The notes under the pieces were generated by a model that did no database searches, was not told the origin of the DNA, and worked only from the letters and a program-made list of their open reading frames with translations. DNA of 64,000 nt from Escherichia coli 042. Lineage in GTDB: Bacteria > Pseudomonadota > Gammaproteobacteria > Enterobacterales > Enterobacteriaceae. The position numbers and the translations under genes are program-made. This document shows positions 6,118-46,664 of this stretch, piece after piece (the stretch's first letter is position 1; every line of letters starts with the position of its first letter). The stretch lies in NCBI RefSeq assembly GCF_000027125.1, contig NC_017626.1, one strand, 5' to 3'.

Positions 6118-6388
6118 TGGATGCCTGATGCGACGCTTGCCGCGTCTTATCAGGCCTACGCTAGACTGCGCAATAGCTTGATTTAGGGTGATTTTGTAGG
6201 TCGGATAAGGCGTTTACGCCGCATCCGACATCAATATCTGATGCGACGCTTACCGCGTCTTATCAGGCCTACGCCAGACTGCGCAATAGCCTGATTTAGC
6301 GTGATTTTGTAGGTCGGATAAGGCGTTTACGCCGCATCCGACATCAATGCCTGATGCGACGCTTGTCGCGTCTTATCAGGCCTACCTT
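6118..6388. repeat. REP/BIME cluster: about 2.3 tandem copies of a ~116-120 bp unit, each containing inverted REP palindromes
   Basis: Directly visible repetition of gatgcgacgcttgccgcgtcttatcaggcctac... and gtaggtcggataaggcgtttacgccgcatccgaca; REP consensus-like sequence between convergent gltP and yjcO. Confidence 0.85.
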
Positions 6389-7076: not shown

Positions 7077-7169
7077 TTTGATAATACGATTGGGTAGGGA
7101 GTAACCAGTATAAAGAGTTCGAATGGATAAAAAAACAGCCTCCGGAAGGAGGCTGTAGAAAGGACTGTA

Positions 7170-9317
7170 TTACGCCAGTGCCGCTTCGCGCAGGCGAGTT
7201 TTCAACTTGTTGTACTCGTCAATCACGTACTGCTCGGCGGCGCGCTGATCGGCGATCGACTCGACGCGCACGGCGCAGTATTTGTATTCCGGCGTTTTCG
7301 TAATCGGGCTTAAGTTTTCGGTAACCAGCTCGTTACAGGCACCAATCCACCACTGGTAGGTCATATAAATCGCCCCTTTGTTCGGACGATCGCTGACCTG
7401 CGCACGGGTGATAATTTTGCCTTTACGCGAGTGCACCCAAACCAATGCCTCATCTTCAATACCCAGACGTTTGGCGTCTTCGGTATTGATTTGTGCGTAG
7501 CCAGGTTCATCAGCCAGCGCCGCCAGTGCCGCACAGTTACCGGTCATCGAACGGCAAGAGTAGTGACCAACTTCACGCACCGTTGACAGTACCATCGGAT
7601 ACTCGTCGGTGAGTTTGTCGATTGGCGCTACCCAGTCGCAGGTGAAGAACTGCGCCAGACCGTTCGGGGTATCAAACTTCTCTTTAAACAGATAAGAAGT
7701 CCCCTGATCGGCATCTGAAGTATCGCGGCAAGGCCACTGAATGAAGCCCAGTTCGCCCATTTTCTCGTAAGTCGCACCGTAGAAATCCGGGCACAGATGA
7801 CGCAACTCATCCCAGATCTCCTGGGTGTTGTTGTAGTGCATCGGATAACCCATACGAGTGGCAATTTCACTGATGATTTGCCAGTCCGTTTTCAGATCCC
7901 ATTTCGGTTCAACTGCTTTGAAGAAACGCTGGAAGCCACGGTCAGCCGCAGTAAACACGCCTTCATGCTCGCCCCACGACGTTGACGGTAAAATAACATC
8001 CGCCGCCGACGCGGTTTTGGTCATAAAGATGTCCTGAACGATAACCAGTTCCAGATCTTCAAAGGCTTTACGTACTGCCGACAGCTCCGCGTCAGTTTGC
8101 AGCGGATCTTCGCCCATAATGTACGCGGCACGCACTTCGCCATGCGCTGCGCGGTGCGGCAGCTCGCTGATGCGATAGCCGGTATGCGCTGGCAGGCTTT
8201 CCACGCCCCAGGCTTTGGCGAATTTCTCGCGGTTAGCCGGATCTTTCACGTACTGGTATCCCGGATACGTATCCGGCAGCGCGCCCATATCGCAGGCACC
8301 CTGCACGTTGTTCTGACCACGAACCGGGTTTACACCCGCATGCGGCTTACCGAGGTTACCGGTCAGCATCGCGAGGCTGGTCAGAGAACGCACGGTTTCC
8401 ACGCCCTGGTAGAACTGGGTTACACCCATGCCCCACAGGATGGCGGCGCTTTTCGCCTGGGCATACATCCGTGCCGCCTGACGAATCTCACTGGCGCTGA
8501 CGCCGGTGATATCTTCAACCGACTCCGGCGTGTAGCCTTCAACGATTTTACGATACTCTTCAAAGCCTTCTGTACGGGAAGCGACGAATGCTTTGTCGTA
8601 CAGATTTTCTTCAATAATGACATGGCCCATCGCATTCAACAGCGCGATGTTCGAGCCGTTTTTCAGTGCAATGTGGATGTCCGCAATGCGCGCGGTTTCA
8701 ATTTTGCGCGGATCGCAGACGATAATTTTCGCCCCGTTACGTTTAGCGTTAATTACGTGATTCGCCACGATTGGGTGGGAATCCGCCGGGTTGTACCCGA
8801 AAACGAACACTAAATCGGTATTATCAATTTCGTTAATAGCATTGCTCATTGCGCCATTACCGACCGATTGGTGCAGACCTGCAACCGATGGGCCGTGTCA
8901 GACACGAGCGCAGCAGTCAACGTTATTGGTACCAATAACGGCGCGCGCAAATTTTTGCATTACATAGTTGGTTTCGTTACCCGTACCACGCGAGGAGCCG
9001 GTCGTCTGGATGGCATCCGGACCGTACTTCTCTTTGATGGCGCTCAGGCGCTCGGCAACGTAATTCAGTGCCTCATCCCAGGAAACAGGTTCGAGTTTGC
9101 CGCCACGCTGGCGACGGATCATGGGGGTTTTCAGGCGCGGGGTCAGGATCTGGGTATCGTTAATGAAATCCCAGCCATAATAACCCTTCAGACACAGGGT
9201 ACCCTGGTTGGTTTTCCCCTGCGCTGCCTCCGCCCGGACGATTTTGCCGTTATCGACGACCAGGTTGATTTTGCAACCTGATGCGCAATAGGGGCAAACC
9301 GTGACGACTTTTTTCAT
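7170..9317 (-). CDS. fdhF: Formate dehydrogenase H (selenocysteine/molybdopterin enzyme); in-frame UGA at 8898-8900 decoded as Sec
   Basis: ORFs 8898..9317 and 7170..8849 are in the same frame, separated only by TGA (complement of tca at 8898-8900); together 715 codons; N-terminal Cys cluster (CPYCASGC). Confidence 0.95.
8850..8897 (-). other. SECIS mRNA stem-loop directing selenocysteine insertion at the fdhF UGA
   Basis: Immediately 3' of the UGA on the coding strand: CACGGCCCAUCGGUUGCAGGUCUGCACCAAUCGGUCGGUAAUGGCG, which I recognise as the fdhF SECIS hairpin. Confidence 0.85.
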
Positions 9318-9368: not shown

Positions 9369-9384
9369 TGCATCTTTTATGCCA
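9369..9384 (-). promoter_or_regulatory. Sigma-54 (-24/-12) promoter of fdhF
   Basis: Minus-strand sequence TGGCATAAAAGATGCA matches the TGGCAC-N5-TTGCA class with conserved GG and GC, about 55-70 bp upstream of the fdhF ATG. Confidence 0.8.
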
Positions 9385-9439: not shown

Positions 9440-9500
9440 ACGAAAAACAGGCTGTCGTCAGTTTTGACGTGACGAAACGAAATACCGCGTGACAGCCATC
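9440..9500 (-). promoter_or_regulatory. Putative FhlA upstream activating sequence for fdhF
   Basis: Cluster of repeated CGTCA/TGACG motifs (tttcgtcacgtcaaaactgacgacag) roughly 100 bp upstream of the sigma-54 promoter; exact site boundaries not resolved. Confidence 0.45.
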
Positions 9501-16548: not shown

Positions 16549-16800
16549 ATAAATCTCCATTTATCATTTATGTCGTAAATATGTAGTCCATGCAAAATAC
16601 GTCATTTGAAGCTGGCGTTATCATAATTGGGAATTTGCGACTTTAATAAGTGGAAGTGTGAGCGGAGCGAGCCATTTTATTAGGCATTTGTGCTGAAGAG
16701 GGAAAAGTACGCGAATTTATTATCTCTGTAAATAATATGAGGTATTTTATATATTTATTATATATATTGTACTTCGGCAAATACTGAGCACAATTAATCA

Positions 16801-17118
16801 ATGCAACCGGTGTTTCTTTTTAAAAAACGTACCGGAGCAATGGGCGGTCATGTCGCTGGCACCGCAGGATTCTGTGTTGCTGTGCCAACCTTTTATTCAT
16901 GGTCAATGAGTGAGGGGATTGATAAAGAAACCAGGTCGTCAGAGCGCACTGATTATCCGCATTACGCCAGTGACGTTGCACTGGCTTTTGGTTCACGAGT
17001 GGTTGGCCTCGAACTGGCAAAAATGATTGTGGATGCGTGGCTGGGCGCGCAGTACGAATGCGGTCGTCATCAACAACGCGTGGAGGCGATTACGGCAATA
17101 GAGCAGCGGAAAAATTGA
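16801..17118 (+). pseudogene. rpiB: Degenerate remnant of ribose-5-phosphate isomerase B (rpiB) with internal deletion and non-homologous 5' part
   Basis: 105 aa ORF contains SSERTDYPHYAS...VALA joined directly to FGSRVVGLELAKMIVDAWLGAQYE.GRHQQRVEAITAIEQR, which I recall as RpiB residues about 36-53 and 107-149; the catalytic middle is absent. Confidence 0.6.
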
Positions 17119-28978: not shown

Positions 28979-29137
28979 GATGGTGACCTCAGTTAAGAGA
29001 AGCCAGTTAAGTGTAGTTCGAAATTTATACAGATGAGAGGGAAGCCTGATAAGACGCGGTCAGCGTCGCATCAGGCAGTCGGCATCGTTGCCGGATGCGG
29101 CGCGAGCGCCTTATCCGGCTTACCGATCACAATACAA

Positions 29138-34744: not shown

Positions 34745-34794
34745 GCTGAAACGGATGGCCTGATGTGACGCTGTCTTATCAGGCCAATTGAAGT

Positions 34795-34811
34795 CTTAAG
34801 GTTCACTTAAT
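34795..34811 (+). promoter_or_regulatory. PmrA (BasR) box upstream of pmrR
   Basis: CTTAAGGTTCACTTAAT is a hexamer direct repeat with 5-bp spacer, matching the PmrA box pattern CTTAAT-N5-CTTAAT, about 45 bp upstream of the pmrR ATG. Confidence 0.7.
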
Positions 34812-34855
34812 CTCTGACGCGCATACTCTCCTCCAGGTTAACGGAGGAGAGTGCA

Positions 34856-34945
34856 ATGAAAAACCGTGTTTATGAAAGTTTAACTACCGTGTTCAGCGTG
34901 CTGGTGGTCAGCAGCTTTCTTTATATCTGGTTTGCCACGTACTGA
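34856..34945 (+). CDS. pmrR: PmrR, 29-aa membrane peptide (LpxT inhibitor)
   Basis: ATG at 34856 preceded by GGAGGA; encodes MKNRVYESLTTVFSVLVVSSFLYIWFATY; below the ORF-track size cutoff; its 3' end overlaps the convergent basS 3' end. Confidence 0.8.
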   Translation: MKNRVYESLTTVFSVLVVSSFLYIWFATY

Positions 34946-36012
34946 TCTTTCTTCAGCCGTACCCAGGCCCGCGTGCCGGAAGTCTCTTGCCGGTTTTGCA
35001 GGAAAAACTGCCCGTGATGCAACTGTGTAATGCGGCTGACAATACTTAACCCCAGACCAATCCCGCCATAACGGCTGTCCATACGTACAAACGCTTTACT
35101 CAACTCCCCGCATTTACTCTCATCAATACCCGGTCCTTCATCTTCAACGGCCATGACCGCTCCGCCATCTTCTTGCAGCTTAATCATAATGTTGCTGCCT
35201 TGCGGGCTGTAACGATGGGCGTTTTCTACCAGGTTTCGCAATAACATCCGCAGCAGGGTTGCATCACCTTGAACGGTGATGTCGGCGGCGCTCTCTGGCA
35301 ATAGCAGGGTTTGCTGTCGCTGGTCGAGCATGGTACTGAGTTCGTCATACGAGGGGAGAATGACATCTTCCAGCAGTTTTACATGTTGATAATTACCGGA
35401 AGAAAATGACTGTCCGGCACGCGCCAGTTGCAGCAGCTGGGAGACACTCTCCATCATCTGATCAAGCCGTGCCACTAACGGTGCTACATCAATGTGATGC
35501 GTTTTCGCCAGCAGTTCCAGATGCAAACGCACCCCCGCCAGTGGCGTTCGCAGTTCGTGCGCGACGTCAGCGGTAAACAACCTTTCGTTATCCAGCGTGC
35601 TGGTCAGGCGACTGACCAGATCGTTCAACGCCGAAACCACCGCTTCGATTTCGAGGGTGGCGCTGTGAATGGCAATAGGCGTTAAGTTGTCGGCGGTGCG
35701 CGCTTCCAGCTCTTTTTGCAGCTCCGCCAGCGGCCGGGTGATGCGGCGTACCGCCTGATAGCAGATAAATAGCGTCAGGCTGACCATAAAGACGCCGGGG
35801 ACGATCAGGCTGGCGACCGCCTCGCGGATCTCACGCATGATGTGGCGATCGTTGTTGCGATTGTCGCGTAGCGCCTGCTCAAACAGCTGAATCTGCTCGG
35901 TACTTTCATGCCATAGCCAGAAGACGCTGATCAGCTCAAACACCAACAAAATGGCCCCAATGGTCAATATCAGCCGTTGGCGCAGCGATATTGGTCGGCG
36001 CAGAAAACGCAT
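34921..36012 (-). CDS. basS: BasS (PmrB) sensor histidine kinase
   Basis: HisKA and HATPase motifs (HELRTPL, GIGLGLSIV); start uncertain between 36012 and 36021. Confidence 0.9.
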   Translation of the reverse strand: MRFLRRPISLRQRLILTIGAILLVFELISVFWLWHESTEQIQLFEQALRDNRNNDRHIMREIREAVASLIVPGVFMVSLTLFICYQAVRRITRPLAELQKELEARTADNLTPIAIHSATLEIEAVVSALNDLVSRLTSTLDNERLFTADVAHELRTPLAGVRLHLELLAKTHHIDVAPLVARLDQMMESVSQLLQLARAGQSFSSGNYQHVKLLEDVILPSYDELSTMLDQRQQTLLLPESAADITVQGDATLLRMLLRNLVENAHRYSPQGSNIMIKLQEDGGAVMAVEDEGPGIDESKCGELSKAFVRMDSRYGGIGLGLSIVSRITQLHHGQFFLQNRQETSGTRAWVRLKKDQYVANQI

Positions 36013-44661: not shown

Positions 44662-46017
44662 ATGATGTCTGCACCCAAAATTACATTTATCGGCGCTGGT
44701 TCGACGATTTTCGTTAAAAATATTCTTGGTGATGTGTTCCATCGCGAGGCGCTGAAAACGGCGCATATTGCCCTGATGGACATTGATCCCACCCGCCTGG
44801 AAGAGTCGCATATTGTGGTGCGCAAGCTGATGGATTCAGCAGGGGCCAGCGGCAAAATCACCTGCCACACCCAACAGAAAGAAGCCTTACAGGATGCCGA
44901 TTTTGTCGTGGTGGCATTTCAGATTGGCGGTTATGAACCTTGCACGGTGACTGATTTCGAGGTCTGTAAGCGGCATGGTCTGGAACAAACCATTGCCGAT
45001 ACGTTGGGGCCGGGCGGTATTATGCGCGCGCTACGTACCATTCCGCATCTGTGGCAAATTTGCGAGGACATGACGGAAGTCTGCCCCGATGCCACCATGC
45101 TCAACTACGTTAACCCAATGGCGATGAATACCTGGGCGATGTATGCCCGCTATCCGCATATCAAACAGGTAGGGCTGTGCCATTCGGTGCAGGGAACGGC
45201 GGAAGAGCTGGCGCGTGACCTCAATATCGACCCGGCTACGCTGCGTTACCGTTGCGCAGGTATCAACCATATGGCGTTTTACCTGGAACTGGAGCGCAAA
45301 ACCGCCGACGGCAGTTACGTGAATCTCTACCCGGAACTGCTGGCGGCTTATGAAGCAGGGCAGGCACCGAAGCCGAATATTCATGGCAATACTCGCTGCC
45401 AGAATATTGTGCGCTATGAAATGTTCAAAAAGCTGGGCTACTTCGTCACGGAATCGTCAGAACATTTTGCTGAGTACACACCGTGGTTTATTAAGCCAGG
45501 TCGTGAGGATTTGATTGAGCGTTATAAAGTACCGCTGGATGAGTACCCGAAACGCTGCGTCGAGCAGCTGGCGAACTGGCATAAAGAGCTGGAGGAGTAT
45601 AAAAACGCCTCCCGGATTGATATTAAACCGTCACGGGAATATGCCAGCACAATCATGAACGCTATCTGGACTGGCGAGCCGAGTGTGATTTACGGCAACG
45701 TCCGTAACGATGTTTTGATTGATAACCTGCCACAAGGATGTTGCGTGGAAGTAGCCTGTCTGGTTGATGCTAATGGCATTCAGCCGACCAAAGTCGGTAC
45801 GCTACCTTCGCATCTGGCCGCTCTGATGCAAACCAACATCAACGTACAGACGCTGCTGACCGAAGCCATTCTTACGGAAAATCGCGACCGTGTTTACCAC
45901 GCCGCGATGATGGACCCGCATACTGCCGCCGTGCTGGGCATTGACGAAATATATGCTCTTGTTGACGACCTGATTGCTGCCCACGGCGACTGGCTGCCAG
46001 GCTGGTTGCACCGCTAA
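44662..46017 (+). CDS. melA: MelA, alpha-galactosidase (GH4, NAD/Mn-dependent)
   Basis: 451 aa; N-terminal Rossmann motif (KITFIGAGSTIF); GGAG RBS. Confidence 0.95.
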   Translation: MMSAPKITFIGAGSTIFVKNILGDVFHREALKTAHIALMDIDPTRLEESHIVVRKLMDSAGASGKITCHTQQKEALQDADFVVVAFQIGGYEPCTVTDFEVCKRHGLEQTIADTLGPGGIMRALRTIPHLWQICEDMTEVCPDATMLNYVNPMAMNTWAMYARYPHIKQVGLCHSVQGTAEELARDLNIDPATLRYRCAGINHMAFYLELERKTADGSYVNLYPELLAAYEAGQAPKPNIHGNTRCQNIVRYEMFKKLGYFVTESSEHFAEYTPWFIKPGREDLIERYKVPLDEYPKRCVEQLANWHKELEEYKNASRIDIKPSREYASTIMNAIWTGEPSVIYGNVRNDVLIDNLPQGCCVEVACLVDANGIQPTKVGTLPSHLAALMQTNINVQTLLTEAILTENRDRVYHAAMMDPHTAAVLGIDEIYALVDDLIAAHGDWLPGWLHR

Positions 46018-46664
46018 GGGGTTATCGCTTCCGGCGCTCTGGTTATCAAGCCAAAGCGCCGTAGCTGGCGGCAATGCAAGCGAGCGAGGAATATCACCGT
46101 CGTTAATGCGCCAAGCAGCGCGCAGAACATATCGGATTGCGTGTCCCACTGGTCGCCCTGGGTGCCGAGAAAATCATCCGCTCCCTGACCCATTGCCAGC
46201 GCCGCCCACCACTCGATTAATTCATACATCGCGCTTATCGCCAGCGCCACGCAACAGACCAGAAACGCCACCATTTTACGTCCGCGAACGTACATCCCGC
46301 GCACAAGGATCTCACGTGCCACCAGTGCAGGCACCAGCCCCTGGAAAAAATGCCCCAGCTTGTCATACGGATTACGGCTCAACCCCAGCCATTCCTGCAC
46401 CTCAAAACCAACGGGGACTTTCGCGTAGGTGTATTGTCCGCCGACCATCAGGATGATGGCGTGAAAGAAAATGAGCGTATAGAGCAGCGGCGTTAACGGA
46501 TAACGTCTGGCGGTGGCAAGCAGTAGCGGCACGACAATAATCACCGGTGTCACTTCCATCAGCCAGGTGAGTTTGTCATGGGCCGAAATGCCGGTATAAA
46601 TCAGGATTAACGTTAGCGCCAGTGCGCCGGTGTTAAGAATTAACGGCTTGAGTGTGCGGGTCAT
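46014..46664 (-). CDS. yjdF: YjdF, inner membrane protein (C-terminus probably altered)
   Basis: 216 aa hydrophobic ORF; its stop (complement of 46014-46016) overlaps the melA stop codon by 2 nt. Confidence 0.8.
   Translation of the reverse strand: MTRTLKPLILNTGALALTLILIYTGISAHDKLTWLMEVTPVIIVVPLLLATARRYPLTPLLYTLIFFHAIILMVGGQYTYAKVPVGFEVQEWLGLSRNPYDKLGHFFQGLVPALVAREILVRGMYVRGRKMVAFLVCCVALAISAMYELIEWWAALAMGQGADDFLGTQGDQWDTQSDMFCALLGALTTVIFLARLHCRQLRRFGLITRAPEAITP

Follow-up and report, generated by a model that had tools for sequence, protein, structure and literature searches.

The in-frame UGA of fdhF in an Escherichia coli 042 genome segment: a selenocysteine codon with its canonical SECIS element

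The window analysed here, a stretch of 64,000 nt from the genome of Escherichia coli 042 (contig NC_017626.1), contains on its minus strand two neighbouring open reading frames that a mechanical listing reports separately, one of 139 aa (8898..9317) and one of 559 aa (7170..8849). The question raised by this locus is whether the TGA that closes the first frame is a nonsense mutation in a decayed gene, the boundary between two genes, or a codon that is read as an amino acid. The evidence gathered in this work points to the last of these: the segment 9317..7170 (-) is almost certainly E. coli fdhF, with the UGA at codon 140 recoded co-translationally as selenocysteine (Sec) by means of a SECIS element. 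The feature has been known since the 1980s, fdhF being the prototype of selenocysteine recoding in bacteria; it is the canonical, experimentally and structurally characterised Sec140 UGA with its SECIS, already known as such. The case is of value as an annotation check and positive control, in which programmed recoding can be told from a pseudogene, and not as a discovery.

Reading frame and identity of the product

The coding features of the locus are the following.

7170..9317, minus strand: coding sequence of fdhF; its 716 codons, the last of them the TAA stop, specify a 715-aa protein in which residue 140 is Sec
8898..8900, minus strand: UGA codon 140 (Sec140), as read in the sequence and placed opposite X140 of PDB 1AA6

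Translation of 9317..7170 on the minus strand yields 716 codons in which codon 140 is the sole internal stop. A first-pass annotation, made from the letters alone, had described an in-frame TGA at 8898-8900 joining the 139-aa and 559-aa pieces, and had named a frameshift between them as grounds for rejecting that description. The single 716-codon frame agrees with the former, and the translation contains no frameshift; to this can be added the strand, which had been left unstated, as the TGA runs from 8900 to 8898 on the minus strand and the plus strand shows 'tca' at 8898-8900. The TGA begins at 8900 and the downstream ATG at 8849, a distance of 51 nt or 17 codons, and the two ORFs therefore lie in one frame. 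These 17 codons encode HGPSVAGLHQSVGNGA and form a segment of the protein, with no role as an intergenic spacer.

With a cysteine put for the stop, the read-through product aligns with the crystallised enzyme of PDB 1AA6 from end to end (residues 1-715 to 1-715, 1663 bits), and the X (Sec) at residue 140 of that structure falls directly opposite the UGA codon, just as had been anticipated for an alignment to the 715-aa FdhF. Only two substitutions separate the product from 1AA6_A (M214I and P687S), and further structures of formate dehydrogenase H (FDH-H) were also matched (1FDO, 1FDI, 2IV2 and 7Z0T). The read-through protein scores 1094.4 bits, over a cutoff of 666.25, against NCBIfam TIGR01591, an equivalog model for the formate dehydrogenase subunit alpha that spans aa 6-685; the FDH-N model TIGR01553 reaches 250 bits against a cutoff of 814, and the remaining models shown likewise fall under their own cutoffs. 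The Pfam domains are PF04879 (Fe4S4, aa 1-54), PF00384 (Molybdopterin, aa 61-487) and PF01568 (Molydop_binding, aa 576-682), the second of which straddles the TGA as one unbroken domain. Residues C8, C11, C15, C42, H141 and R333 are all found in the product; from the 1AA6 and 1FDO structures, we take the four cysteines to be those of the [4Fe-4S] cluster and H141 and R333 to belong to the active site, with Sec140 presumably the molybdenum ligand of the bis-PGD cofactor. The identification of the gene as fdhF, first put forward without database searches, is borne out by the TIGR01591 score, the RefSeq name and the yjcO-fdhF-mdtP synteny. Within the formate hydrogenlyase complex, FdhF is the catalytic subunit, with Mo-bisPGD and a [4Fe-4S] cluster as its cofactors.

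The nearest known system is fdhF of E. coli K-12 (b4079), which shares with the window copy the yjcO-fdhF-mdtP synteny, the length of 715 aa and Sec140, and whose SECIS has the same 55-position consensus, GGUC loop, U17 bulge and 11-nt spacing. Relative to the crystallised sequence, the differences of the window copy are allelic only (I214 for M and S687 for P), and the window copy is unusual in nothing beyond these two amino-acid substitutions. The other two selenoprotein genes of E. coli, fdnG and fdoG, encode the alpha subunits of FDH-N and FDH-O, which are periplasmic, respiratory enzymes of about 1015 aa, and have SECIS hairpins of their own. They share with fdhF the UGA, the downstream hairpin and recoding by SelB, as well as membership of the Mo-bisPGD superfamily, but belong to another protein family, as the TIGR01553 score of the window protein indicates, and they are absent from the window.

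The SECIS element and its folding

Three RNA features can be placed around the UGA, with the U of UGA numbered as nt 1.

8851..8905, minus strand: full SECIS according to Rfam SECIS_2, from 5 nt 5' of the UGA through 47 nt 3' of it
8870..8886, minus strand: minimal SECIS, the 17-nt apical stem-loop GGUUGCAGGUCUGCACC, from the fold of the 17-mer and its coordinates
nt -5 to -1 (GUGUC) with nt +46 to +50 (GGCGC), minus strand: outer helix around the UGA, from the Rfam model and the fold

The Rfam model SECIS_2 (RF01988) matches 8905..8851 (-) with 87.1 bits (E = 1.8e-17), above its gathering score (GA) of 70 and over model positions 1-55 of 55, and the minimum free energy (MFE) fold of these 55 nt is the structure of the Rfam model (-19.7 kcal/mol). 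Folding of the 45-51 nt 3' of the UGA gives a hairpin with GGUC, at 8879..8876, as its apical loop. Both the fold and the SECIS_2 match thereby bear out the hairpin with a GGUC loop that had been described just 3' of the UGA. The apical stem-loop corresponds to nt 15-31 and begins 11 nt past the UGA; its loop is G22-G23-U24-C25, and either U17 or U18 is bulged. The fdhF SECIS has been described as a 40-nt element with a 17-nt upper stem-loop located 11 nt from the UGA, in which U17, G23 and U24 are the determinants for SelB (PMC8659212); the SECIS/SelB mechanism is summarised in PMC4513850. Here the same nucleotides lie at 8884 (U17), 8878 (G23) and 8877 (U24), in agreement with that description (PMC8659212) in both position and identity, and they are the predicted contacts of SelB, whose binding to this RNA would follow the same pattern.

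Thermodynamic stability gave a different picture. Folding with RNAfold had been suggested as a check on the hairpin, and the suggestion holds in one respect only: the hairpin with its GGUC loop does form, but in this G+C-rich coding context its stability does not discriminate. Against dinucleotide shuffles, the z-scores were +0.10 (51 nt), -0.85 (45 nt) and -1.23 (55 nt), with further values of -0.91 and -0.67, and mean fold energy was -15.8 kcal/mol in homologues with a cysteine codon versus -13.7 kcal/mol in the TGA set. Hairpin stability at this locus is not distinctive with respect to shuffled sequence, and thermodynamics alone would therefore not have found the SECIS. Folding energy was dropped as a discriminating criterion, given that shuffles fold alike and that the cysteine homologues are the more stable, and a covariance model and synonymous-site analysis were used in its place. 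A SECIS is marked instead by one particular apical hairpin, set at a constant spacing from the UGA.

Conservation of pairing was assessed over 33 distinct TGA sequences, in which 92% of the pair cells are standard, as opposed to 23-49% after a shift of the 3' partners by 1-3 columns. With U17 bulged, the alignment contains two compensatory pairs (nt 15-31, GC to UA, and nt 18-29, UA to AU) and more of its cells are paired; the register of the Rfam model and the MFE fold, with U18 bulged, has one compensatory pair and 7 broken cells at nt 17-29, and was rejected. The U17-bulged register is thus preferred because of its two compensatory pairs and its greater pairing, the UA-to-AU change at nt 18-29 being the one that speaks for it in particular. 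The compensatory changes at nt 15-31 and nt 18-29 are both confined to the Pasteurellaceae and, being found in one lineage, may reflect one or two evolutionary events. Several pairs of the lower stem are often broken, as illustrated by columns 17-39, which are unpaired in 24 of the 33 sequences. This pattern agrees with reports that the essential part is the upper stem-loop only.

Over the 33 distinct sequences, which come from enterobacteria and Pasteurellaceae, the outer helix is 98.8% paired, and it varies only by changes from C-G to U-G and from G-C to G-U. It falls outside the classical 40-nt SECIS. We consider it very unlikely that this helix acts in its own right, for example by hiding the stop from release factor 2 (RF2) or by timing the refolding of the SECIS between ribosomes; as the Rfam model already includes the outer helix, any such function would only refine a system already known. 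Weaker still is the notion that the I214/S687 allele might alter the properties of the enzyme.

Constraint next to the UGA and competing explanations

A comparison of orthologues with and without the UGA was carried out by scanning one genome per species with a degenerate pattern for D-C-C-A-R-V, TGA/TGC/TGT and H-G-P, which leaves synonymous sites downstream of codon 143 unconstrained. Of the 120 loci found, 57 have TGA and 63 a cysteine codon, so that a TGA at the equivalent of codon 140, in the peptide context DCCARV_HGP, occurs in 57 other species-level genomes. The cysteine-type FdhF homologues, from Enterobacterales and other Proteobacteria, have the same DCCARV-x-HGP flank as fdhF, with TGC or TGT in place of the UGA, and a median ungapped identity of about 69% to the window protein over 301 aligned codons.

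In the 52 TGA orthologues with sufficient flank, synonymous codon heterozygosity is 0.157 in codons 141-153, as against 0.486 in the rest of the 300-codon stretch, and codons 141-153 are the lowest of 199 sliding windows. The 52 TGC/TGT homologues with an identical flanking peptide show no such constraint past the codon, with values of 0.608 in codons 141-153 and 0.498 elsewhere. Structural comparison divides the loci in the same manner: among distinct TGA sequences, 30 of 33 have the apical hairpin in their MFE fold, as compared with 4 of 62 cysteine sequences, and the gathering score of SECIS_2 is reached by 7 of 10 loci with TGA but by none of 10 with a cysteine codon, the three TGA loci that stay under that score being divergent copies from Haemophilus, Budvicia and Cricetibacter. 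There is, hence, a constraint at the RNA level that exceeds what the protein needs and that is specific to the UGA-bearing orthologues. More generally, the synonymous comparison of Sec and Cys orthologues constitutes a simple, reusable test for SECIS constraint that works where folding energy fails.

Within E. coli, 5419 of 5426 complete genomes carry the 2.5-kb fdhF segment, located between yjcO and mdtP and annotated as fdhF. Queries with the K-12 genes detected selAB in 5425, selD in 5425 and selC in 5424 of the same 5426 genomes. Within the window, no tRNA genes were found, and the annotation of syntenic genomes shows no sel genes across it.

These data bear on three other explanations of the TGA. 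The first, highly improbable, is that it represents a true nonsense mutation and that fdhF is a pseudogene of which only a 139-aa N-terminal fragment is made. The splitting of the gene in the mechanical ORF list fits this view, as do the many database entries that carry both fragments as separate proteins, but of the 5420 E. coli records that match, 5411 are 100% identical over the TGA and its surrounding 60 nt, and the 57 other species-level genomes have a TGA at the equivalent codon. Furthermore, the 575 codons downstream are intact and near-identical to those of the crystallised enzyme, whose structure has Sec140, and the additional synonymous constraint past the TGA is the opposite of decay. 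Programmed recoding at Sec140, which the first-pass annotation had already favoured over a pseudogene, is upheld by the 1AA6 match, the SECIS_2 match and the synonymous constraint taken together.

Less probable again is an arrangement of two genes, in which a 139-aa Fe-S protein would be followed by a 559-aa molybdopterin protein re-initiated at the AUG at 8849 by translational coupling. An in-frame ATG does lie 51 nt downstream, and entries for the 559-aa fragment do exist in databases; yet both the Molybdopterin domain (aa 61-487) and TIGR01591 (aa 6-685) cross the TGA unbroken, the 17 codons that separate the ATG from the TGA encode conserved active-site residues (HGPSVAGL...) that align to 1AA6, and the cysteine-codon homologues are continuous through the equivalent motif. 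Just as hard to credit is read-through of the UGA without SelB or SECIS, for instance by a near-cognate tRNA(Trp) or tRNA(Cys), with the RNA structure serving mRNA stability or ribosome pausing: the unremarkable stability of the hairpin is compatible with it, but the conserved nucleotides are the SelB determinants U17, G23 and U24 at the 11-nt spacing, the element adjoins the TGA and is seldom or never seen in cysteine sequences (apical hairpin in 4 of 62, SECIS_2 in 0 of 10), crystal structures have Sec at residue 140, and the sel machinery is near-universal in E. coli.

For SECIS-directed recoding, a mechanism can be outlined in which, as we infer from established knowledge, SelB binds the RNA of the window copy, RF2 competes for the UGA and Sec140 takes part in catalysis. 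The mRNA 3' of the UGA would fold into the SECIS hairpin, and the C-terminal domain of SelB would bind the apical 17-nt stem-loop through its GGUC loop, G23, U24 and the bulged U17. SelB would carry GTP and Sec-tRNA(Sec), the tRNA being the product of selC, presumably charged through SerRS, SelA and SelD. Tethered 11 nt past the UGA, this complex would bring Sec-tRNA(Sec) into the A site, where release factor 2 competes for the codon, and the expected outcome is a 715-aa enzyme in which Sec140 ligates the molybdenum of the bis-PGD cofactor.

Annotation and surroundings of fdhF

It had also been predicted that automated annotation would miscall the gene, a prediction that holds for part of the public record only. 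RefSeq/PGAP has one intact fdhF CDS of 2148 nt in the E. coli records inspected, with identical coordinates in strain ECA64, and many RefSeq records label fdhF as 'selenocysteine-containing'. On the other hand, split fragments, deposited or predicted as proteins, do populate public protein sets. The exact 559-aa fragment is GenBank KPO32484.1, and its 90%-identity cluster has 11,377 members, mostly of 559 aa; at least 1000 contigs carry the exact 139-aa fragment, whose 90%-identity cluster has 2,374 members. Pipelines that are blind to Sec split fdhF, whereas curated ones do not, and recognition of the UGA and its SECIS together keeps fdhF from being called a pseudogene or two genes by mistake. 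Some RefSeq records name fdhF 'formate dehydrogenase N subunit alpha'.

Strains ECA64 and CB6837 match the 2.5-kb fdhF segment at 100% identity, whereas for the surrounding 25 kb the identity to complete RefSeq E. coli genomes reaches about 98.3% at most. The flanks of the gene contain three further features.

9369..9384, minus strand: sigma-54-type -24/-12-like element TGGCAT-N5-ATGCA, some 52 nt before the start codon of fdhF
9475..9455, minus strand: upstream 6-nt inverted repeat, noted by eye only
7135..7156, minus strand: intrinsic-terminator-like hairpin ACAGCCTCC-TTCC-GGAGGCTGT followed by a run of seven T, from a consensus scan

By established knowledge, expression of fdhF is dependent on sigma-54 and FhlA, and formate-induced anaerobic expression of this kind would be expected of the window copy too. 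The upstream element departs from the consensus TGGCAC-N5-TTGCA by 2 mismatches, and matches of this quality are as frequent in the window as chance would have it (21 found versus 27.9 expected). The consensus search was accordingly set aside as promoter evidence, and the promoter assignment rests instead on position and on the known sigma-54/FhlA dependence, which make TGGCAT-N5-ATGCA a candidate fdhF promoter and a positional lead. At the other end of the gene, the terminator-like hairpin, a pattern match only, has a 9-bp stem with 6 GC pairs and starts 14 nt past the fdhF stop, which suggests that fdhF may be transcribed as a single-gene unit.

Naming and relatives of fdhF

The product name of fdhF, the gene for formate dehydrogenase H, varies among the RefSeq records that match window 7170-9317. 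Besides 'formate dehydrogenase subunit alpha' and 'formate dehydrogenase H subunit alpha, selenocysteine-containing', many recent records carry 'formate dehydrogenase N subunit alpha, selenocysteine-containing'. The FDH-N designation is at odds with the family models, because the FdhF of the window reaches only 250 with the FDH-N model TIGR01553 (cutoff 814), while it attains 1094 with TIGR01591, the model for formate dehydrogenase subunit alpha (cutoff 666).

The peptide-pattern scan for DCCARV-x-HGP, conducted on one genome per species with TGA, TGC or TGT at x (loci L002-L121), reveals that many Enterobacterales genomes contain both fdhF with Sec (TGA) and a paralogue with Cys (TGC/TGT), and that the DCCARV-x-HGP motif is identical in both copies. 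Such pairs occur in Enterobacter sp. Bisph1 (L004/L005), in Citrobacter werkmanii (L006/L007) and in Hafnia paralvei (L053/L054), where the two copies reside on one contig. The SECIS is absent from the Cys copies. For the E. coli genome included in the scan (L043), the TGA copy alone was recovered.

Inspection by eye of the fdhF upstream region also points to a short inverted repeat:

9369-9384 (-), sigma-54-like -24/-12 element of fdhF (TGGCAT-N5-ATGCA)
9455-9475 (-), inverted repeat TCGTCA-N9-TGACGA

The repeat lies approximately 90-105 nt upstream of the -24/-12 element, at the position anticipated for an enhancer site bound by FhlA, even if a repeat of 6 nt could be due to chance.

Relation to sequenced E. 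coli strains

Among complete RefSeq E. coli genomes, the best identity for the 25 kb spanning window 5000-29999 is about 98.3%, in contrast to the 2.5-kb fdhF segment, for which the identity with strains ECA64 and CB6837 is 100%. Either this region is a mosaic, or its source strain lies outside the genome collection.

Several differences in gene content were also observed. At window 16772-16981, some 200 nt replace about 6.8 kb of ECA64 that comprise the als operon (alsK, alsE, alsC, alsA, alsB and alsR) and most of rpiB. The same layout without als, including a truncated RpiB-family CDS, is present in strain C4, and the difference thus looks like a known strain polymorphism. The ISEc31 insertion near yjdN of ECA64 is likewise absent from the window. 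At window 46017-46038, approximately 1.66 kb containing melB are missing with respect to PRO_A-1490-6W-A_ESBL, the closest complete genome (99.0% identity), and the yjdF side follows the end of melA with hardly any sequence in between.

Rfam matches

The following Rfam matches also lie in the window:

34787-34952 (+), STnc630, 181 bits
6199-6269 (+), naRNA4 (RF02564), match 1
6312-6382 (+), naRNA4 (RF02564), match 2
29043-29120 (-), naRNA4 (RF02564), match 3

STnc630 is an enterobacterial sRNA family. Its match encloses a 29-codon ORF, MKNRVYESLTTVFSVLVVSSFLYIWFATY. Judging from its location, downstream of proP, this ORF is the counterpart of pmrR, a gene for a small protein in the annotation of syntenic genomes. 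The STnc630 'sRNA' family thus represents, at least partly, the mRNA of a small protein.

The three naRNA4 matches (68-88 bits) each consist of paired G+C-rich hairpins. The first two are arranged in tandem in the gltP-yjcO interval, just downstream of the fdhF neighbourhood, and constitute a 148-nt direct duplication with 94.6% identity (blastn).
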